A stretch of 28,457 nucleotides of DNA from a virus (lineage: Duplodnaviria; Heunggongvirae; Uroviricota; Caudoviricetes). Below are positions 17,899-28,457 of the stretch, piece after piece. Both the position numbers and the translations under genes were made by a program. The stretch is from positions 1 to 28,457 of the IMG/VR virus record IMGVR_UViG_2698536484_000010; one strand, 5' to 3'. The notes below the pieces were generated by a model. It saw only the letters and a list, made by a program, of their open reading frames with translations, was not told the DNA's origin and ran no database searches. The stretch's first letter is position 1; every line of letters begins with the position of its first letter.

Positions 17899-18943
17899 AT
17901 TTCAGCGCCCGACGCTGGCAGAAAATATCAGTATGCTCCGTAACGATTTATTCGCCAGGCTGGACGTCAGCGACACGCTCCGGCGCATGGATGAAGACGT
18001 GCGGGCAAAGGTGTATGCGGCGGCGCTGCATACGGTTTACGGTTACATCGATTATCTGGCAATGAACATGCTGCCTGACCTGTGCGATGAGTCCTGGCTG
18101 GCGCGACATGCTGCGATGAAACGGTGTCCGCGCAAGGGAGCCACGGCTGCCAGTGGGTATATGCGCTGGGAAGGTGTCAGCGATGGCCTGAAGGTGACCG
18201 CCGGGAGCGTGATTCAGCGCGATGACCTGGTTCAGTACACGGCAACTGCCGATGCAACCAGCTCCGGTGGTGTCCTGCGTGTGCCGATCACTTGCTCAAC
18301 TACAGGCGCGGTCGGTAACGCTGACGACGGTACGGCATTAATCCTGGTCACGCCGGTGAATGGTCTGCCGTCTTCCGGCGTGGCAGATACCCTGACAGGT
18401 GGATTTGATACTGAAGAGCTGGAAACGTGGCGCGCCCGCGTCATTGAGCGGTATTACTGGACGCCTCAGAGCGGGGCTGACGGGGACTATGTTGTCTGGG
18501 CTAAAGAAGTTCCCGGCATTACCCGCGCATGGACATACCGACACTGGATGGGAACGGGGACTGTCGGTGTGATGATTGCCAGCAGCGACCTGATTAACCC
18601 CATTCCGGAAGAATCAACGGAAACGGCGGCAAGACAACACATTGAGCCACTGGCTCCGGTGGCAGGCTCTGATTTGTATGTATTCAGGCCGGTGGCACAT
18701 ACGGTGGATTTTCATATCCGCGTGACGCCGGACACACCAGAAATACGGGCTGCCATTACCGCGGAGTTGCGTTCGTTCCTGCTGCGTGATGGTTATCCGC
18801 AGGGAGAACTGAAGGTATCGCGTATCAGTGAGGCGATTTCCGGTGCGAACGGGGAATACAGCCATCAGTTGCTTGCACCGGCGGACAATATCTCCATTGC
18901 AAAAAATGAACTGGCGGTTCTGGGGACGATTTCATGGACGTGA
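17885..18943 (+). CDS. Baseplate J-like protein (Mu gp47-like)
   Basis: 352 aa; coupled; position. Confidence 0.75.
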
Positions 18944-19518
18944 CAAACGATGATTACATCCGTCTGTTGTCGGCACTGCTGCCGCCCGGTCCGGCGTGGT
19001 CAGCCAGCGATCCGGCGATTGCCGGTGCAGCACCGTCATTAACCCGCGTTCATCAGCGTGCGGATGCCCTGATGCGGGAGCTGGATCCGCGCACCACCAC
19101 CGAACTGATAAACCGCTGGGAGCGTCTGTGCGGCCTGCCAGATGAATGTATTCCTACAGGGACACAGACCCTTCGCCAGCGTCAGCAACGGCTGGATGCG
19201 AAGGTTAACCTGTCGGGTGGCATCAACGAGGATTTTTATCTTGCACAGCTTGCTGCCCTGGGCAGACCAGATGCTACCATCACGCGATACGACAAAAGTA
19301 CGTTCACCTGCTCATCGGCCTGTACTGACGCTGTGAACGCGCCTGAATGGCGGTATTACTGGCAGGTCAACATGCCAGCCGCCACCAACACCACCTGGAT
19401 GACATGTGGCGATCCCTGTGATTCCGCACCGCGTATCTGGGGCGACACCGTTGTCGAATGTGTGCTTAACAAACTCTGCCCGTCGCATACCTACGTAATT
19501 TTTAAATATCCGGAGTAA
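18934..19518 (+). CDS. YmfQ-like tail protein (Mu gp48 / P2 gpI-like), Cys-rich C-terminus
   Basis: 194 aa; immediately upstream of the tail fibre gene as in e14-like phages. Confidence 0.7.
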
Positions 19519-19825
19519 TCCATGCATCGTATAGACACGAAAACCGCGCAGAAGGATAAGTTCGGCGCGGGTAAGAACGGTTTTACCCGTGGTAACCCCC
19601 AGACCGGCACGCCTGCCACCGATCTGGATGATGACTACTTTGACATGTTGCAGGAGGAGCTTTGCAGCGTTGTGGAGGCGTCCGGTGCCAGCCTGGAGAA
19701 GGGGCGGCACGACCAGCTACTTACCGCGCTTCGCGCGCTGCTGTTAAGCCGCAAGAATCCGTTTGGCGATATCAAATCGGATGGCACGGTGAAAATGGCT
19801 CTCGAAAACCTTGGTTTGGGAGAAG
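19064..19825 (+). repeat. Direct repeat copy 1 (762 bp: YmfQ 3' part + Sc + pix); copy 2 at 20689-21450
   Basis: Identical translations in all frames across both copies; boundaries read from sequence. Confidence 0.75.
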
Positions 19826-20130
19826 CGGCAAAACGGAATGTGGGAACAGGGGAAAATCAGATACCTAGTATGTCAGAATGGACATCTGGGACAGGATGGA
19901 ATAGAGACCCGTCGGGGAGAATAATACAGCGGGGATTTGCTATGACATCAAGTCAAACTAACATTTTATTCCCGATACCATTTCCGTATGACGATTTCGA
20001 AGTTATCGTTTGTGCAGCAGATACAGGAGCAAATAAAGGGGCCGTAAATGTGTTGCGAAAATCGAGGCAGGGGTTTTCTGTTTCACAGGTTGGAAGTATG
20101 CCAGTCGCATACAGATGGATAGCGGGGTGA
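19522..20130 (+). CDS. Tail fibre protein: constant N-terminus (Sc, aa 1-97) fused to variable C-terminus Sv1
   Basis: 202 aa; first 100 aa identical to the ORF at 21147; the two diverge directly after the 26-bp crossover site at 19799-19824. Confidence 0.75.
19799..19824 (+). other. Pin crossover site (pix-like): CTCTCGAAAACC-TT-GGTTTGGGAGAA
   Basis: Two imperfectly symmetric 12-bp half sites flanking a 2-bp core, same architecture as gix/hix; lies exactly at the Sc/Sv junction and at the inverted-repeat boundary. Confidence 0.7.
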
Positions 20131-20573
20131 TTGAAATGTATAAATTTGATCCAAAGAATGCATTATTCTATCCTGCTGCGTCAATTTCCGATTATAAATT
20201 GAGCGAAGATGAAATCGCCACATTCACTGATATTAGCGAGGAGGATGCAACCGAGTTTTTAGGATTCCCGCCGACTGGAAAAATCAGAGGGTCGGACGGT
20301 TATGGCAATCCTGCATGGGTTGAAATACCTCCACCATCACATGAGGAACTTATTGAACAGGCCGAATCAGAGAGGCAATTATTGATTAACCATGCCAACG
20401 AATACATGAACAGTAAACAATGGCCTGGTAAAGCGGCTATTGGTCGTCTGAATGGTGAGGAACTGGCGCAATATAATTTGTGGCTGGATTATCTGAACGC
20501 ACTGGAACTGGTTGATACCTCCAGTGCGCCAGATATTGAATGGCCTACGCCTCCGGCAGTTCAGGCCAGATGA
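20115..20573 (+). CDS. Tail fibre assembly chaperone Tfa1
   Basis: 152 aa; overlaps the fibre gene 3' end; identical inverted copy at 22521-22979. Confidence 0.75.
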
Positions 20574-20687
20574 CATCCGGCGCGGTGCTGGTATCTGTTG
20601 CCGTCACCGCGTCAATGTAATCCAGCACAGCGTTAAGTCGGGTGGTTTCTGCCTGCGTCAGTTTACGTCCGGCCTGCAATTTCAGTT
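20545..20687 (-). pseudogene. 3' fragment (about 47 codons) of the Tfa2 gene, inverted copy
   Basis: Reverse complement of 22407-22549; copy ends abruptly at 20687. Confidence 0.5.
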
Positions 20688-20688
20688 A

Positions 20689-21143
20689 ATGCCCTGATGC
20701 GGGAGCTGGATCCGCGCACCACCACCGAACTGATAAACCGCTGGGAGCGTCTGTGCGGCCTGCCAGATGAATGTATTCCTACAGGGACACAGACCCTTCG
20801 CCAGCGTCAGCAACGGCTGGATGCGAAGGTTAACCTGTCGGGTGGCATCAACGAGGATTTTTATCTTGCACAGCTTGCTGCCCTGGGCAGACCAGATGCT
20901 ACCATCACGCGATACGACAAAAGTACGTTCACCTGCTCATCGGCCTGTACTGACGCTGTGAACGCGCCTGAATGGCGGTATTACTGGCAGGTCAACATGC
21001 CAGCCGCCACCAACACCACCTGGATGACATGTGGCGATCCCTGTGATTCCGCACCGCGTATCTGGGGCGACACCGTTGTCGAATGTGTGCTTAACAAACT
21101 CTGCCCGTCGCATACCTACGTAATTTTTAAATATCCGGAGTAA
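20689..21143 (+). pseudogene. Truncated duplicate of the YmfQ-like gene (equivalent to codons 46-194 of 18934-19518; translated copy 20697-21143)
   Basis: 148 aa identical to the C-terminal part of the gene at 18934; no N-terminus or proper start. Confidence 0.55.
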
Positions 21144-21146
21144 TCC

Positions 21147-21947
21147 ATGCATCGTATAGACACGAAAACCGCGCAGAAGGATAAGTTCGGCGCGGGTAAG
21201 AACGGTTTTACCCGTGGTAACCCCCAGACCGGCACGCCTGCCACCGATCTGGATGATGACTACTTTGACATGTTGCAGGAGGAGCTTTGCAGCGTTGTGG
21301 AGGCGTCCGGTGCCAGCCTGGAGAAGGGGCGGCACGACCAGCTACTTACCGCGCTTCGCGCGCTGCTGTTAAGCCGCAAGAATCCGTTTGGCGATATCAA
21401 ATCGGATGGCACGGTGAAAATGGCTCTCGAAAACCTTGGTTTGGGAGAAGGTTCGGCATTACCCGTTGGTGTGCCTGTTCCGTGGCCTTCCGCCACTCCG
21501 CCAACAGGCTGGCTGAAATGCAACGGTGCGGCTTTTTCTGCTGAAGAATACCCGGAACTGGCAAAGGCTTACCCGACAAATAAATTGCCTGATTTACGTG
21601 GTGAGTTTATTCGTGGCTGGGATGACGGACGTGGTATGGATACGGGGAGGGCAATATTATCAGCTCAGGGCGATGCCATACGTAATATCTATGGTGAGTT
21701 CAAGACTGTAAACACCGAAAATTATTCAATATGGGAATCAGCAGGCTCGTTTAAGGGGGCAGTGGTGCCTTTGAATCCCTCAACGAACAATAGTTATTTC
21801 TCCTTAACCAGAAGTATGGTGACTGAAAGAACAGATGGCGCTGTTTACCCAAAAGTGATTGGCCTTGATGCTTCAAGAATTGTTCCAACTGCAAACGAAA
21901 ACCGTCCTCGTAACATTGCCTTTAATTATATCGTGAGAGCTGCCTGA
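21147..21947 (+). CDS. Tail fibre protein: Sc fused to alternative C-terminus Sv2
   Basis: 266 aa; C-terminal region matches the receptor-binding domain pattern of P2 H / Mu S-like fibres ([17 protein letters not shown] ... [10 protein letters not shown]). Confidence 0.8.
21424..21449 (+). other. Pin crossover site (pix-like), identical 26-mer to 19799-19824
   Basis: Same 26-bp sequence at the Sc/Sv2 junction. Confidence 0.7.
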
Positions 21948-22549
21948 TGAATAAAGCCGTATTAAATAACGAACTCATTGCCATAAAAGCGGGAGACATT
22001 ACCATTTATAATTATGATGGTGAAACGCGGGAATATATTTCCACATCAACTGAATATCTTGCGGTTGGCGTCGGTATCCCGGAATGTTCTTGTTTAGATG
22101 CACCAGTTACACATAAAGCTGGTTATGCAATCTGCCGTTCTGCAGATTTTAACTCATGGGAATATGTGCCAGACCATCGCGGTGAAATCATCTATAGCAC
22201 CGAAACAGGAGAATCGAAAGAAATCACAGCTCCGGGTGATTACCCTGAAAATACAACCACTATCGCCCCGTTAACGCCATATGATAAATGGGATGGTGAG
22301 AAATGGGTGACGGATACCGGGGCACAGCATAGCGCCGCAGTAGATGCAGCAGAAGCACAGCGCCAGTCGCTGATTGATACTGCAATGGCTTCCATCAGTC
22401 TGATTCAACTGAAATTGCAGGCCGGACGTAAACTGACGCAGGCAGAAACCACCCGACTTAACGCTGTGCTGGATTACATTGACGCGGTGACGGCAACAGA
22501 TACCAGCACCGCGCCGGATGTCATCTGGCCTGAACTGCCGGAGGCGTAG
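21947..22549 (+). CDS. Tail fibre assembly chaperone Tfa2
   Basis: 200 aa; N-terminus [10 protein letters not shown] typical of Tfa proteins; 3' end converges on and overlaps Tfa1 on the opposite strand. Confidence 0.75.
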   Translation: MNKAVLNNELIAIKAGDITIYNYDGETREYISTSTEYLAVGVGIPECSCLDAPVTHKAGYAICRSADFNSWEYVPDHRGEIIYSTETGESKEITAPGDYPENTTTIAPLTPYDKWDGEKWVTDTGAQHSAAVDAAEAQRQSLIDTAMASISLIQLKLQAGRKLTQAETTRLNAVLDYIDAVTATDTSTAPDVIWPELPEA

Positions 22550-22979
22550 GCCATTCAATATCTGGCGCACTGGAGGTATCAACCAGTTCCAGTGCGTTCA
22601 GATAATCCAGCCACAAATTATATTGCGCCAGTTCCTCACCATTCAGACGACCAATAGCCGCTTTACCAGGCCATTGTTTACTGTTCATGTATTCGTTGGC
22701 ATGGTTAATCAATAATTGCCTCTCTGATTCGGCCTGTTCAATAAGTTCCTCATGTGATGGTGGAGGTATTTCAACCCATGCAGGATTGCCATAACCGTCC
22801 GACCCTCTGATTTTTCCAGTCGGCGGGAATCCTAAAAACTCGGTTGCATCCTCCTCGCTAATATCAGTGAATGTGGCGATTTCATCTTCGCTCAATTTAT
22901 AATCGGAAATTGACGCAGCAGGATAGAATAATGCATTCTTTGGATCAAATTTATACATTTCAATCACCCCGCTATCCAT
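22521..22979 (-). CDS. Tail fibre assembly chaperone Tfa1 (inverted cassette copy)
   Basis: 152 aa identical to 20115-20573. Confidence 0.7.
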
Positions 22980-23281
22980 CTGTATGCGACTGGCATACTT
23001 CCAACCTGTGAAACAGAAAACCCCTGCCTCGATTTTCGCAACACATTTACGGCCCCTTTATTTGCTCCTGTATCTGCTGCACAAACGATAACTTCGAAAT
23101 CGTCATACGGAAATGGTATCGGGAATAAAATGTTAGTTTGACTTGATGTCATAGCAAATCCCCGCTGTATTATTCTCCCCGACGGGTCTCTATTCCATCC
23201 TGTCCCAGATGTCCATTCTGACATACTAGGTATCTGATTTTCCCCTGTTCCCACATTCCGTTTTGCCGCTTCTCCCAAACC
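22964..23281 (-). CDS. Silent Sv1 cassette: promoterless, start-less variable C-terminal fibre segment that becomes fused to Sc on inversion
   Basis: Identical to codons 98-202 of 19522-20130; the ORF-track N-terminal extension to 23323 runs across the crossover site and is not credible. Confidence 0.6.
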
Positions 23282-23295
23282 AACGTTTATGAAAA
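23270..23295 (+). other. Pin crossover site in inverted orientation: TTCTCCCAAACC-AA-CGTTTATGAAAA
   Basis: Inner half site is the exact reverse complement of GGTTTGGGAGAA; core AA is the complement of TT; lies 55 bp upstream of pin. Confidence 0.65.
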
Positions 23296-23349
23296 TGCAG
23301 AAATAACGAGCAAATGGCATCATTCCTGCTTTTGTCAGGGAGATCTACC

Positions 23350-23904
23350 ATGCTTATTGGCTATGTACGTGTGTCAACAAATGACCAGAACACAGATCTA
23401 CAACGTAATGCGCTGAACTGTGCAGGATGTGAGCTGATTTTTGAAGACAAGATAAGCGGTACAAAGTCCGACAGACCAGGACTGAAAAAGCTGCTCAGGA
23501 CATTATCGGCAGGTGACACGCTGGTGGTCTGGAAACTGGACCGACTGGGGCGCAGTATGCGGCATCTTGTCGTGCTGGTGGAGGAGTTGCGCGAACGAGG
23601 CATCAACTTTCGTAGTCTGACGGATTCAATTGATACCAGTACCCCAATGGGGCGCTTTTTCTTTCATGTGATGGGTGCCCTGGCTGAAATGGAGCGTGAA
23701 CTGATTGTTGAACGAACAAAAGCTGGACTGGAAGCAGCTCGCGCACAGGGACGAATTGGTGGACGTCGCCCCAAACTTACACCAGAACAATGGGAGCAGG
23801 CCGGACGATTAATTGCATCAGGCGTTCCTCGCCAGAAGGTGGCGATCATCTATGATGTTGGTATATCGACACTGTATAAGAAGTTTCCGGTCGGAGATAA
23901 ATGA
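23350..23904 (+). CDS. pin: Serine DNA invertase (Pin/Gin/Hin/Cin family)
   Basis: MLIGYVRVSTNDQNTDLQRNAL... with catalytic Ser in the YVRVS motif and C-terminal HTH; SD GGGAG 7 nt upstream of ATG 23350. Confidence 0.9.
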   Translation: MLIGYVRVSTNDQNTDLQRNALNCAGCELIFEDKISGTKSDRPGLKKLLRTLSAGDTLVVWKLDRLGRSMRHLVVLVEELRERGINFRSLTDSIDTSTPMGRFFFHVMGALAEMERELIVERTKAGLEAARAQGRIGGRRPKLTPEQWEQAGRLIASGVPRQKVAIIYDVGISTLYKKFPVGDK

Positions 23905-23964: not shown

Positions 23965-24834
<870 letters not shown>

Positions 24835-24914: not shown

Positions 24915-24980
24915 GGACCGGTCTCGAAAACCGGAGTGGGGGCAACTCCACCGGGGGTTCAAATCCCCCTCTCTCCGCCA
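24915..24980 (+). other. att core: 3' 66 nt of a tRNA-Ser(CGA) gene (anticodon stem-loop through CCA), no 5' half
   Basis: GGACCGGTCTCGAAAACCGG (anticodon CGA) ... CCGGGGGTTCAAATCCCCCTCTCTCCGCCA; upstream sequence cannot form the acceptor stem. Confidence 0.7.
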
Positions 24981-25025
24981 AAATTCAATCACTTATACAT
25001 CATTAAGTCAGTGACAAAAATCACA

Positions 25026-25057
25026 CTTGGAATTACTTGGAATATTTTCTTGGAATA
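25026..25057 (+). repeat. Three direct copies of CTTGGAAT (25026, 25036, 25050), candidate integrase arm-type sites
   Basis: Read directly; overlap the int stop codon, lying between int and the att core. Confidence 0.4.
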
Positions 25058-26058
25058 TTTTCAGGTAACGGGACATCAAGTGTCGGTGAAACTTTAACCT
25101 TCCTGTCATAGATTAGCACTTGCCCCTCGGTTTTGTGACCAGAGAAAAGTTGCTTATCCCGACTGCTTCCTTCATAGTCTGAAATTCCTTTCGCCTTCAG
25201 ATCATGAAAGGTGAAGTCGGTTAAAATACCTGAAATTTTGCCTGCGCGATTTCTTGCTTCTACCCACATTTCGTTAAAGCCTTTGTACATATATCGGTTG
25301 CCGTATTGATTGCTGATTACATAGGCGGATGTTGGTAACTGTTTTGCTTTTTCGATCGCCGCCTGTAATCGTGGACTCCATGCTTTTATCTGTTTTTTTC
25401 CTGTTTTCCCTTGCTGGATAAAGATCCCGTCGTTTCCAATCTGCTCCCATTTCAGCGATAACACATCGGAAACCCTCGCTGCACACAGATAGGCAATTTC
25501 CATTGCGATAAAAACAGGAAGAGGTGCAACGCTTAATACTGCCTGGTATTCTTTGTCGGTTACATATCGTTCGCGGTTTTTGGCCTTGAATTTACTTACA
25601 CCTGCACATGGGTTACCCTTCACGTACCCTCGCTCATACCCCCAACTGTAAACGCGGGACATACTGCTTTTTTCATGGTTGGCTTGCGTTTTACTCTGCT
25701 CCCCTCTCTTGTCCATGTATCGACGGATGTGTTCTGGTTTTATGGAATCTGCCGGCACCTTACCGAATACGGCAAGCAACTTTTTTTGATGTTGCAGATA
25801 ATCTTTTTGTGTTCTTGGACTGAGGTCACTGTAATAGGCGCTGGCGAGGAATTTTTCCCACAAGCGACCGAATGTCATTGCACGATCGCGATTATTTACA
25901 GTTTCCTCATACTTTTTCCATAAAGCAGCTAAACCATCCTTGATGGCGGTTAGTGTTACAGATTCTCTGGATGTTGGTTTCCATGCATAACTATATTTAT
26001 TTGGGTATACATTTGGAGGTAATTTTTCGTGTTCAGGATTTTTCCTTCGTCTTCCCAT
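25033..26058 (-). CDS. int: Tyrosine integrase (lambda Int family)
   Basis: 341 aa; box I AARVSDVLSLKW, box II TFHDLK...GHKTEGQVLIY aligns with lambda TFHELR...GHKSDTMASQY. Confidence 0.9.
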   Translation of the reverse strand: MGRRRKNPEHEKLPPNVYPNKYSYAWKPTSRESVTLTAIKDGLAALWKKYEETVNNRDRAMTFGRLWEKFLASAYYSDLSPRTQKDYLQHQKKLLAVFGKVPADSIKPEHIRRYMDKRGEQSKTQANHEKSSMSRVYSWGYERGYVKGNPCAGVSKFKAKNRERYVTDKEYQAVLSVAPLPVFIAMEIAYLCAARVSDVLSLKWEQIGNDGIFIQQGKTGKKQIKAWSPRLQAAIEKAKQLPTSAYVISNQYGNRYMYKGFNEMWVEARNRAGKISGILTDFTFHDLKAKGISDYEGSSRDKQLFSGHKTEGQVLIYDRKVKVSPTLDVPLPENIPRKYSK

Positions 26059-26261
26059 CAGATCGCACCAAAATTCGGCTCTACCTCGCGTGGTGGTAAA
26101 GTTTTATTGCAGGTAAATAGCTCCCGGCTGACAATCGGTTTGCCACTACGATTGGTATAGAACGGAAGCCCGTTTTCCATTAACCATTTTCGCTGGTGGC
26201 TTGCATATTTGCAGCCCGTTAATATTAGCAATTCATCTTCGGTTAAAAATAAGCTGCTCAT
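26058..26261 (-). CDS. Excisionase-like small DNA-binding protein
   Basis: 67 aa; stop overlaps int start (ATGA); position and size typical of xis. Confidence 0.5.
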   Translation of the reverse strand: MSSLFLTEDELLILTGCKYASHQRKWLMENGLPFYTNRSGKPIVSRELFTCNKTLPPREVEPNFGAI

Positions 26262-26319
26262 AGCTATATCTCATAACCGCCGCTAACTATATACGGTTAG
26301 CGGCAATTAGGGTTGAACA

Positions 26320-28440
26320 TTAAAAATCAGCCTGACTCGGGATCAGTTTTTGCCAGATAGCTGAAACGTATTTTGCCTGGTAACGGGCGTCATCAAGTGC
26401 ATTATGGCGCTCACCTTCGAATGGAATAGCCGTTCTGGCATCGAAGTCTATGGCTTTCCCCAGCTCAACGATTGTGCGTACATCGCGATCGTTGTAGTAA
26501 CGCCACGGGCAGGGGATCCCCTGCCGTTCGTATGAACGGCGCAAAATCGTGTTGTCGAAGTTGGCTCCATTTCCCCAGACATGAACAAAAAATTCACCGG
26601 AGTTTTCGTCGATAAATTCCCGCAATTGTAACAGTGCATCATCTAACGGGATTTCATCGGCCATAATGGCAGATTGCGCTTCGCGTGATTGTTTAAGCCA
26701 CCATTTAATGGTGTCCCGATCAATGACTCCGCCAGCAGTTTCCAGATCGATAGTCTTACTAAATTCCGGTCCCATATCTCCGGTTTGCGGATCGAAAAAT
26801 ATTGCACCTATTGAGATAATCGGGGCATCGGGATTTTTTCCCATGGTTTCAAGGTCGATCATCAGATGAATCCCCGCTCTGCTGGTGGATGTGAGATTAT
26901 GATGACCGTTCGCCTTAATTAAGGGATCTGACGCCTCGCCAGTTTCACTATCGCTGGCATGATGCTGATTGCCGCCAGTGTTCTCCTTGTGCTGATGCGC
27001 AGTGCCTTCCATTTCCTCCGGATCATTTTCCTGAACTTCAGGCTGATTCTCTCCATCGAATATTTCCTGGTATGTTGCGTCACCCATCACCGCACCACAA
27101 TCAGGGCAGTTGCCGCCACCGCTCTGACCGCAGGCGGTGCAGATCTTTTCCGGTTCCTGTTGCACTACTGGTTCAGGTTGTTTCGTTTCTGGCTCGTTTT
27201 GTAACGCATTTGGGCTGTTTTGTTCCGCTTTTTGGTAGTTCCGTTCCGATTCATGCTGGTTCTGGTTCACAGAATCGCGAGTCTGGATCCCCTTGACCCA
27301 TTTCGGATCATTAGGGGCGCTAATCCCCTCAACAAATTCACCACGCGATACAGCAAGTAACTTATCGGCGTCAGGCTGGCTGATATTGGCTGCCTGCATA
27401 ATTTTGTTTACTTCGTCAGCGGTAACTTTTACCGGCCCTGGTTGTGCGGTCGTGTCAGATGCACCAGTATTTTGTTGTGAACCTGAGTATGTACCGTTTT
27501 TGCGGGCGAAATATTCTTCTTTCGTGATTTCAGTAGCCCCAGCAGACAGCGCCTTATCCAGACCAGAAAGTTTGTTTGCGCGACCGTATTTTTCGCCATC
27601 CTTGTCGGTGAAGAGGAAGTAGAACGGCCCCTCACGCTCTACAGATGGTTCAGCTTCCGGCGCGGTTTCATTTTTTGGGATATCAGATACCTCAGTTTCC
27701 ACTGCATCAGTTTGTGTTTCTGATGACTGGAGAACATCAACAGTGCCCAGGTCTGTTTCTTCATTCTCAAACACGCCCTTTGTCGTCAGGTATTCGCAGA
27801 TATATTTGTTCAGTGCTACGGGATCTTTGTGAATGTCGATCGGACGTTCACGGACAAGGCCAAAAATAGTCTGGCGGTCGTAGCGAAGGGCATCAGGCTG
27901 TTTGCGCATTGATGCCGAGATACGCTTCCAGTCTTCGCGGCCGTTGTCGATAACTTCATTTTTTGCCCAGCGATGGATGCTGCCGTCAATGTTTCCGGCA
28001 TCCACATCACCAGGCCAGAGAGCGTAGGCCAGTTCGTCATCCAGTGTTTTCCATGTCTGCTTGTATTCGCGATGAATGGCAGCAATGACCGGGCTGATTT
28101 TTCCTGTTGAATTTTCAGTGTACTGTTGATTGGCTCTGGCGCGGGCGAGATCAACAACAGACGTGTATTTTCCGGTTTCCTTGCGTTCACCTTCGCGACG
28201 TTTTTTCCAGATGCGCATCTCTGCCTGAATTTCGGGCCATTTAGCACCAGGAATACATTTATGCTTAACCCACCCAATGGCGTGCAACTTAAGCTCCGGA
28301 TACATGGCGTTAACTTCTGGCATTTTCATCAACGCTTCAACGATATGTCCGTCGAATGTTGCCATGTCTTCCTGCAACAATTCCTGTGCGCTAATAACCA
28401 TATCAACGGTGATGTTTTCACATGTGTCGAACTTAACCAT
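26320..28440 (-). CDS. Large exonuclease with C-terminal DnaQ-like DEDDh 3'-5' exonuclease domain
   Basis: 706 aa; C-terminal motifs IDLETMG (Exo I), VWGNGANFD (Exo II), HNALDDARY (Exo III with His); central CxxC...CxxC zinc-ribbon-like motif; acidic/polar linker. Confidence 0.7.
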   Translation of the reverse strand: MVKFDTCENITVDMVISAQELLQEDMATFDGHIVEALMKMPEVNAMYPELKLHAIGWVKHKCIPGAKWPEIQAEMRIWKKRREGERKETGKYTSVVDLARARANQQYTENSTGKISPVIAAIHREYKQTWKTLDDELAYALWPGDVDAGNIDGSIHRWAKNEVIDNGREDWKRISASMRKQPDALRYDRQTIFGLVRERPIDIHKDPVALNKYICEYLTTKGVFENEETDLGTVDVLQSSETQTDAVETEVSDIPKNETAPEAEPSVEREGPFYFLFTDKDGEKYGRANKLSGLDKALSAGATEITKEEYFARKNGTYSGSQQNTGASDTTAQPGPVKVTADEVNKIMQAANISQPDADKLLAVSRGEFVEGISAPNDPKWVKGIQTRDSVNQNQHESERNYQKAEQNSPNALQNEPETKQPEPVVQQEPEKICTACGQSGGGNCPDCGAVMGDATYQEIFDGENQPEVQENDPEEMEGTAHQHKENTGGNQHHASDSETGEASDPLIKANGHHNLTSTSRAGIHLMIDLETMGKNPDAPIISIGAIFFDPQTGDMGPEFSKTIDLETAGGVIDRDTIKWWLKQSREAQSAIMADEIPLDDALLQLREFIDENSGEFFVHVWGNGANFDNTILRRSYERQGIPCPWRYYNDRDVRTIVELGKAIDFDARTAIPFEGERHNALDDARYQAKYVSAIWQKLIPSQADF

Positions 28441-28457
28441 GACAGCGTTCTGTACTT

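Follow-up and report, generated by a model that had tools for sequence, protein, structure and literature searches.

The DNA between positions 21450 and 23269 of the analyzed stretch (28,457 nucleotides, referred to below as the window) is almost certainly an invertible segment of the e14 P type, predicted from its sequence to switch the tip of a tail fibre. It forms part of the late tail operon of an E. coli prophage resembling SfV, SfII and SfIV, with a lambdoid head and a Mu-like contractile tail. As a whole, the locus is best explained as a Pin fibre switch combined with a partial duplication (probability of about 0.85). The switch itself brings nothing new; it follows the e14/Mu/P1 paradigm that is widespread among E. 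coli prophages, and RefSeq relatives have already been annotated with pinE, tfaE and ymfQ.

Organization of the invertible segment

The genes and sites identified within the locus are listed below.

18934–19518 (+): ymfQ, intact copy; Mu gp48-like baseplate wedge protein, 194 aa (Pfam PF10076, E=9e-27)
19064–20688 (+): tandemly duplicated block, 1,625 bp, delimited by exact repeats and a junction
19522–20130 (+): fibre gene copy 1, Sc (101 aa) and Sv1 in frame, 202 aa (ORF; PF21882)
19799–19824 (+): crossover site L1, CTCTCGAAAACC TT GGTTTGGGAGAA, product of the duplication
20115–20573 (+): Tfa1, forward copy, tail-fibre assembly protein, 152 aa (PF02413, E=5e-31)
20697–21143 (+): ymfQ, second copy, 5′-truncated, 148-aa ORF from Met47 (ORF list, domain search)
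21147–21947 (+): fibre gene copy 2, Sc and Sv2 in frame (tail-collar domain), 266 aa (PF07484)
21424–21449 (+): crossover site L2, CTCTCGAAAACC TT GGTTTGGGAGAA, same as e14 pixL
21947–22549 (+): Tfa2, 200 aa (domain search), 91.5% identical to K-12 TfaE
22521–22979 (−): Tfa1, silent inverted copy (ORF, sequence comparison)
22964–23323 (−): Sv1 cassette, inverted, 119-aa ORF (ORF, comparison with K-12)
23270–23295 (−): crossover site R, TTCTCCCAAACC AA CGTTTATGAAAA, core 23282–23283, same as e14 pixR
23350–23904 (+): pin, serine DNA invertase of 184 aa, Ser9 present, C-terminal HTH (PF00239, E=1e-51; PF02796, E=4e-13)

The Pfam domains found at the locus (gp48, collar, gp53-like C, two Caudo_TAP proteins and Resolvase with HTH_7) are those expected of such a switch, the gp53-like C domain being that of Sv1.

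Scanning of the window with a 19-nt probe (up to 3 mismatches allowed) revealed three sites in 28 kb, L1, L2 and R, compared with 0.03 expected by chance. L2 and R are mutually inverted, have the inner half-site GGTTTGGGAGAA and the TT/AA core in common, and are built, like other sites of this class, of 12-bp imperfect inverted half-sites around matching 2-bp non-palindromic cores. Both 26-bp sites match the pix sites of e14 in E. coli K-12 at every base. These sequences agree with an earlier, sequence-only reading, in which 21450–23269 was described as flanked by inverted 26-bp sites with a common inner half-site and a TT core. That reading had also placed the core in the codon at which the two fibre proteins diverge, which needs correction: the L2 core (TT, 21436–21437) falls within codon 97 (CTT, Leu) of the fibre gene, five codons ahead of the divergence codon. 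The first 101 aa of fibre copies 1 and 2 are identical and divergence begins at codon 102 (21450–21452 in copy 2), while the inner half-site codes for GLGE, present in both fibres.

Between L2 and R, Sv2 and Tfa2 are encoded on the plus strand and Tfa1 and Sv1 on the minus strand, so that both cassettes can be read explicitly from the sequence, as had been claimed. The constant N-terminus lies outside the segment, the two convergent cassettes lie inside it, and the frame is kept after in silico inversion. Since the first 101 codons are outside the segment and the crossover falls inside the reading frame, the same N-terminus is joined to either cassette. In the opposite direction, the 22964–23323 ORF begins with a short leader outside the segment, passes site R and runs on into Sv1. 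In position it corresponds to StfE2 of K-12 (PMC12529663).

The pin gene begins 55 bp past site R, just outside the invertible segment, as in other systems of the class, and its intact 184-aa ORF corresponds to the serine invertase gene previously noted directly downstream. Pin has the resolvase catalytic domain, nucleophilic serine (Ser9, included in the element MLIGYVRVSTND) and C-terminal HTH of the small serine recombinases, which are about 185–195 aa long. It is 96% identical to K-12 PinE, and its best matches in PDB are the Mu Gin structures 3uj3 and 4m6f (E=1e-95). Invertases of this family act together with Fis, and an enhancer containing two Fis sites is expected within the 5′ part of the invertase gene, about 100 bp away from the nearest crossover site. 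A motif scan, performed without a reference enhancer sequence, gave a Fis-like 15-mer whose centre is 95.5 bp away from the R core, followed 49 bp farther on by a weaker one. Over its first ~110 nt, pin has almost the same sequence as K-12 pinE and Mu gin, a conservation for which coding constraint could account.

By analogy with the other small serine invertases of its group (Gin/Hin/Cin/Pin), Pin would bind the 26-bp sites, cut at the 2-bp core and invert the 1,846 bp between cores 21436 and 23282. Inversion would join one N-terminus to Sv2 (then Tfa2) or to Sv1 (then Tfa1), resulting in an altered receptor-binding tip.

The identity with e14, together with comparison between genomes, suggests that such inversion probably takes place in this strain. 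With the duplication removed, the window is colinear with strain D1, and its in silico inverted form is colinear with strain 22AR0750; when the orientations are wrongly paired, the alignment breaks exactly at the sites. Strains D1, MB15 and O157 share one orientation and 22AR0750 and E371 have the opposite one, again with breakpoints at the sites. Among complete genomes, the Sc-Sv2 junction was found in 514 and the Sc-Sv1 junction in 5. Opposite orientations within one clone were sought in two O157:H7 strains, both of which had the same orientation. In the case of e14, experiments have shown PinE, PinQ and PinR to invert the P segment between TTGGTTTGGGAGAAGG and the complement of this sequence, and both orientations coexist in K-12 culture (PMC12529663; PMC4272514), with the inverted form in ~30% of the cells (PMC12529663). 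The earlier assignment of the locus to the Mu G / P1 C / e14 P type is thus upheld by the sites identical to those of e14, the close relationship of Pin to PinE, the Mu-like layout and the occurrence of both orientations in nature.

The tandem duplication and the third site

The locus contains an exact direct repeat of 762 bp (19064–19825 = 20689–21450) and an exact inverted repeat of 877 bp (19811–20687 with 22407–23283), which together amount to a 1,625-bp tandem duplication with the third site, L1; in the repeat analysis, the A-B join sits precisely at the core. The block starts within the intact ymfQ, at 19064, comprises the 3′ part of this gene, Sc, the site, Sv1, Tfa1 and 114 nt antisense to the tfa2 3′ end, and ends at a novel junction (20687, an orphan A at 20688, 20689). 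The orphan base matches neither parental sequence, and the parental sequences share at most 2 nt at the junction. L1 has the same direction as L2 and is inverted relative to R, and the forward Tfa1 is identical to the inverted copy at 22521–22979. The duplication was overlooked in the sequence-only reading, although it falls within the span considered there (19799–23904), whose own start coincides with that of L1.

In the deposited sequence, the forward strand encodes both fibre types in frame, because the duplication adds a second in-frame fibre gene, Sc-Sv1/Tfa1. Their frame and strand indicate that both fibres may be co-expressed. The proposal that inversion swaps Sv2/Tfa2 for Sv1/Tfa1 is appropriate for the type of switch, but not for this arrangement: with Sc-Sv1/Tfa1 already present in frame in the upstream copy, L2-R inversion would not be a simple swap and, according to the enumeration of isomers, would convert Sv1+Sv2 into Sv1+Sv1. 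In total, Pin could interconvert four enumerated isomers (Sv1+Sv2, Sv1+Sv1, Sv1 only and Sv2 only), and RecA recombination over the 762-bp repeat would remove the duplication.

The simplest history would consist of (i) duplication during the Sv1-on orientation followed by (ii) Pin inversion between L2 and R. The outcome would be direct L1 and L2 sites with R inverted, a forward Sc-Sv1/Tfa1 upstream and a normal switch downstream. Pin as the maker of the junction was rejected, as inspection by eye against the half-site consensus found no Pin quasi-site there.

A weak terminator-like hairpin is present between the copies (20577–20591), and the terminator and promoter scans yielded nothing exceeding the shuffle expectation. 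No Shine-Dalgarno sequence was seen upstream of the truncated ymfQ (20697–21143).

It may tentatively be proposed, as a rather doubtful extension of these observations, that the duplication turns an either/or switch into a three-site, four-state device, whose deposited state makes both fibres on one N-terminal anchor. If this were true, mixed-fibre virions and a broader host range would be possible, and the locus would be a snapshot of a multi-site invertible cluster arising from a two-site switch.

Biological or assembly origin of the duplication

We are inclined to regard the duplication as present in cells, perhaps as a recent private event, and not as an assembly error. Nevertheless, there is a considerable chance that the strain carries an ordinary two-site switch, and that a mixed-orientation culture caused the Sv1-on junction to be placed in tandem with the Sv2-on locus during assembly, scaffolding or gap closing. 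The window is the entire 28-kb contig of a fragmented draft assembly (GCA_001286165.1), and orientation mixtures are usual, as exemplified by the K-12 cells mentioned above (PMC12529663). Invertible regions of mixed orientation are a known source of assembly trouble, and in ON470584, the record of a related phage, a break falls exactly at this region. The orphan base at 20688 could be the remnant of a closed 1-nt gap. Furthermore, the duplication junction is unique among all collections searched: a 401-bp junction query detected it in 0 of 5,426 complete E. coli genomes, and a 36-nt exact pattern had 0 matches in viral, genome and metagenome contigs. The 100% identity of the two copies would suit a very recent event or an artefact alike.

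On the other hand, the sequences that meet at the junction, mid-tfa2 antisense and mid-ymfQ, are both unique and are not the repeat boundaries, where orientation mixtures give graph ambiguity. Since no more than 2 nt are shared at the junction, a shared repeat cannot have led to a misjoin in a de Bruijn graph; without a shared k-mer at the join, any assembler of this type would need junction k-mers in the reads. In addition, the whole structure is explained by two biological steps, tandem duplication and then L2-R inversion.

Other 148-aa truncated YmfQ proteins of the same 90% cluster were considered as further duplications and rejected; their shortness reflects either the start codon chosen for an intact gene or an independent deletion in a decayed e14-like element.

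If the duplication is real, the structure records a Pin inversion that followed it and constitutes a natural intermediate, in which tandem duplication plus one inversion adds a crossover site and lets two fibres be expressed together. If it is an artefact, it serves as a warning that invertible segments can yield false duplications in drafts, and that fibre-gene counts in these regions are untrustworthy.

Role of the switch and related systems

Inversion would also change the cassette fused to the leader ORF that crosses R leftwards, and the locus could conceivably be a host anti-phage switch rather than a phage host-range device, which we consider unlikely. K-12 StfE2 is reported to block T2 adsorption and to give protection (PMC12529663), and the 22964–23323 ORF has the same leader as K-12 StfE/StfE2, followed by a gp53-like domain. 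However, the gp53-like part is just 32% identical to StfE2, so the activity of the latter is not transferable, and the promoter scan gave no candidate site for this ORF. Moreover, the head and tail genes of this prophage, in contrast to those of the defective e14, form a full set (related prophages cover 94% and an isolated myovirus ~80%), which makes the classical fibre role available.

That the locus is a frozen relic, with sites and cassettes kept but no inversion in this strain, is very improbable: locked relatives are known (pin is truncated in 22AR0750 and E371) and the orientations are skewed as counted above, but here pin is full length with Ser9, close to the active PinE and conserved in its 5′ region, the sites are those of functional e14, K-12 has other Pin paralogues able to act in trans (PMC12529663), and the duplication, if real, requires a later inversion.

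The closest counterpart of this fibre-tip switch is the e14 P segment (stfP/tfaP - tfaE/stfE - pinE), with which it shares, besides the sites, Pin and Tfa2, the order ymfQ, fibre constant part, two convergent Sv-Tfa cassettes and pin, as well as a leader ORF crossing site R. The two differ in that e14 is defective, whereas the window appears to come from a complete SfV-like myovirus prophage; Sc-Sv1 is 57% identical overall to StfP and Sv2 is 58% identical to StfE; pin is followed by a gene for a GIY-YIG protein here and by mcrA in e14; and only the present locus has the extra 1,625-bp tandem duplication and third site.

Clusters of the p15B Min type resemble this locus in having more than two crossover sites and, consequently, more than two isomers. 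The same likeness extends to the multi-IR invertible regions of P2-like E. coli prophages (PMC4272514). Systems of these two kinds differ from it in holding several distinct cassettes, which evolution has maintained. Assignment to a shufflon-like cluster of the p15B Min type was rejected: there are three sites, but the third is a private identical duplication that brings no new cassette, was found in no other genome or contig searched, and may be an artefact.

The P1 C/Cin and Salmonella Hin/H systems were compared at the level of the invertase, which belongs to the same subfamily, P1-like Cin matching Pin at ~81% identity. Hin switches a promoter, not a fibre. In both systems inversion proceeds by a Fis/enhancer-dependent invertasome mechanism (PMC3798978).

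Compared with the Mu G segment (S/U - U′/S′, Gin), the sites are identical in 18 of 26 positions and the core is TC/GA in Mu versus TT/AA here; the Mu fibres are ~500 aa long and the G segment ~3 kb, versus 202 and 266 aa and 1.85 kb, and the cassettes are without detectable similarity. Nevertheless, both systems have 12-2-12 sites inside the fibre reading frame that code for NLGL (the Mu gix sites lie within the NLGLQE coding stretch), both have an invertase gene just outside the segment with conserved 5′ DNA, and Mu-type baseplate genes, gp44-48, are located upstream in the window.

Organization of the tail-fibre switch

The anatomy of the switch region was established by ORF listing, repeat finding, direct reading of the DNA and exact repeat extension.

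Features of the switch region (Sc, constant fibre N-terminus; Sv1 and Sv2, alternative C-termini; Tfa1 and Tfa2, paired assembly proteins)
18934-19518 (+), ymfQ (Mu gp48-like)
19522-20130 (+), fibre gene Sc-Sv1, 202 aa
19799-19824, crossover site L1
20115-20573 (+), tfa1, forward copy
20574-20687 (+), 114 nt antisense to the tfa2 3' end
20688 (+), single orphan base A
from 20689 (+), second ymfQ, 5'-truncated (ORF 20697-21143)
21147-21947 (+), second fibre gene Sc-Sv2, 266 aa
21424-21449, crossover site L2
21947-22549 (+), tfa2
22521-22979 (-), tfa1, inverted copy
up to site R (-), Sv1, inverted
23270-23295, crossover site R
23350-23904 (+), pin
23965-24789 (-), LEM-3-like GIY-YIG protein (slot after pin)

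Every gene assignment is backed by Pfam (gp48, gp53-like C, tail collar, two Caudo_TAP, and Resolvase with HTH_7). The G+C content of the cassettes (0.41-0.45) is lower than that of the constant part (0.54-0.60). A 119-aa ORF (22964-23323, minus strand) starts next to pin, outside the invertible segment, and reads through site R into silent Sv1. By position it corresponds to K-12 StfE2, although its gp53-like part is only 32% identical; StfE2 is a chimeric protein for which a block of T2 adsorption was reported in 2025 (PMC12529663).

The 28-kb window contains exactly three copies of the 26-bp site type (3 matches to a 19-nt site probe versus 0.03 expected by chance). The sequence of L1 and L2 is CTCTCGAAAACC TT GGTTTGGGAGAA, and that of R is TTCTCCCAAACC AA CGTTTATGAAAA. 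As described in the sequence-only reading, L2 and R have the inner half-site in common, contain a TT core and enclose positions 21450-23269. The core was also said to lie in the codon where the fibres diverge, but positions 21436-21437 belong to codon 97 (Leu); the fibres have 101 residues in common and diverge from codon 102. The GLGE motif, common to both, is encoded by the inner half-site.

Relationship to e14 and other invertase systems

Base for base, the L and R sites match the pair that bounds the K-12 e14 P segment. In e14, sequencing, qPCR and PCR have demonstrated inversion between TTGGTTTGGGAGAAGG and its complement; ~30% of a wild-type culture was inverted, and the segment is a substrate for PinE, PinQ and PinR alike (PMC12529663). 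Paired-read analysis likewise showed that both forms coexist (PMC4272514). The Pin protein of the window is 96% identical to PinE, matches Mu Gin crystal structures (E=1e-95) and retains Ser9. Mu gix has the same 12-2-12 layout and likewise lies within the NLGLQE coding stretch of a fibre gene. Over its 5' 110 nt, pin is almost the same sequence as K-12 pinE and Mu gin and, by analogy, this stretch lies where the Fis-dependent enhancer is placed in the invertase family; in the Hin system the enhancer is ~100 bp from the nearest site (PMC3798978).

The variable cassettes differ from those of e14 (Sc-Sv1 is 57% identical overall to StfP, and Sv2 58% to StfE). The switch is thus essentially the e14 P segment in its sites and recombinase, with different variable cassettes. 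All the features that define Gin/Hin/Cin/Pin fibre switches and could be tested were found, which supports the proposed Pin-controlled host-range switch; what that proposal describes is already known.

Probable tandem duplication within the switch

A duplication was overlooked in the sequence-only reading. An exact 762-bp direct repeat (19064-19825 = 20689-21450) and an exact 877-bp inverted repeat (19811-20687 = reverse complement of 22407-23283) give the contig the order A-B-j-A'-C-B'-pin, where A is the constant part, B the Sv1-Tfa1 block, C the Sv2 block and j a novel junction. This order could have been generated by two events: (i) tandem duplication of A+B (1,625 bp) while the switch was Sv1-on, followed by (ii) one inversion by Pin at L2 and R. 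A meets B precisely at the core, where Pin recombination has to place such a join. At junction j the middle of tfa2, read antisense, adjoins the middle of ymfQ; the two share 0-2 nt there, and the junction carries one untemplated base. Pin was rejected as the maker of j.

The duplication is probably real, recent and private, possibly occurring in only part of the culture (probability approximately 0.6). None of 5,426 complete E. coli genomes contains its junction, which also had no match in viral, genome and metagenome contig collections. The window is the whole of contig CYBA01000059.1 (draft assembly GCA_001286165.1), whose ends fall in prophage sequence, suggesting assembly from short reads. 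Since switch orientations are usually mixed, which disturbs assemblies, and the record of a related phage (ON470584) has its break right at the invertible region, an assembly artefact is a substantial but lesser possibility. However, the junction lies away from any repeat boundary and the parental sequences have no k-mer in common, so that a graph assembler would need junction-containing reads. ON470584.1 (locus L019, 1-2309), deposited as the "partial genome" of the isolated phage vB_EcoM-689R6, opens with the invertase gene and has a fibre gene that stops abruptly; the break in this assembly appears to lie at the invertible segment and illustrates such disturbance.

Three independent decayed e14-like elements (L014, L015 and L016) have deletion end-points in ymfQ (window 19041-19066), within ~25 nt of the right side of the duplication junction (19063/19064). 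This region may be a rearrangement hot spot, or the clustering may reflect selection bias, because a shared 148-aa ORF call led to all three.

With a real duplication, the late-operon strand would encode both Sc-Sv1/Tfa1 and Sc-Sv2/Tfa2 in frame, with a separate start region for each, and RecA could collapse the 762-bp repeat. Symbolic enumeration indicated that Pin could produce four isomers: the deposited one (Sv1+Sv2), Sv1+Sv1, and one each with Sv1 alone or Sv2 alone. L1 and L2 have the same orientation, and sites in direct repeat are recombined poorly by invertases of the Gin/Hin/Cin/Pin family. A three-site, dual-fibre variant of the switch, conditional on a real duplication, is a tentative and rather unlikely proposition. 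A multi-site cluster of the p15B type was ruled out, as the third site brings no new cassette and is not conserved.

Host prophage and inversion between genomes

The surrounding element is a complete-looking myovirus prophage, SfV/SfII/SfIV-like, covered to 94% by a prophage of strain MB15 (97.6% identity) and to ~80% by the isolated myovirus vB_EcoM-720R4. Its relatives carry the usual arrangement in single copy (ymfQ, fibre, tfa, tfa', Sv', pinE). Nucleotide homology to phages SfIV, SfII, SfI, SfV and vB_EcoM-720R4 ends exactly at 21450, the inner end of L2, and this site is therefore also a mosaic boundary for fibre-tip exchange.

The duplication was removed in silico and the resulting sequence compared with other genomes. 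The un-inverted form was colinear with strain D1 and the inverted form with strain 22AR0750; in pairs of mismatched orientation the alignment breaks fall exactly within the 20-bp sites. Among the 5,426 complete genomes, junctions of the Sc-Sv2 type numbered 514 and those of the Sc-Sv1 type 5. In 22AR0750 and E371 pin is truncated, and the orientation is therefore locked.

The position immediately after pin is occupied by a nuclease/defence-type gene that varies among relatives (L005, 6487-8376; L007, 5847-6680; L019, 684-1517; L015, 6194-8083): the LEM-3-like GIY-YIG gene also in MB15, D1 and O157, McrA (HNH) in K-12 e14 and vB_EcoM-689R6, and DUF262/GmrSD in 22AR0750 and one more contig. At its right end (24916-28457) the contig matches, with 100% identity, one end of a different prophage, the end that carries integrase, DUF4224 and exonuclease; many E. 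coli genomes have that prophage beside tRNA-Ser. No tRNA was detected in the window by ARAGORN, so the two prophages seem to meet at this attachment site or close to it.
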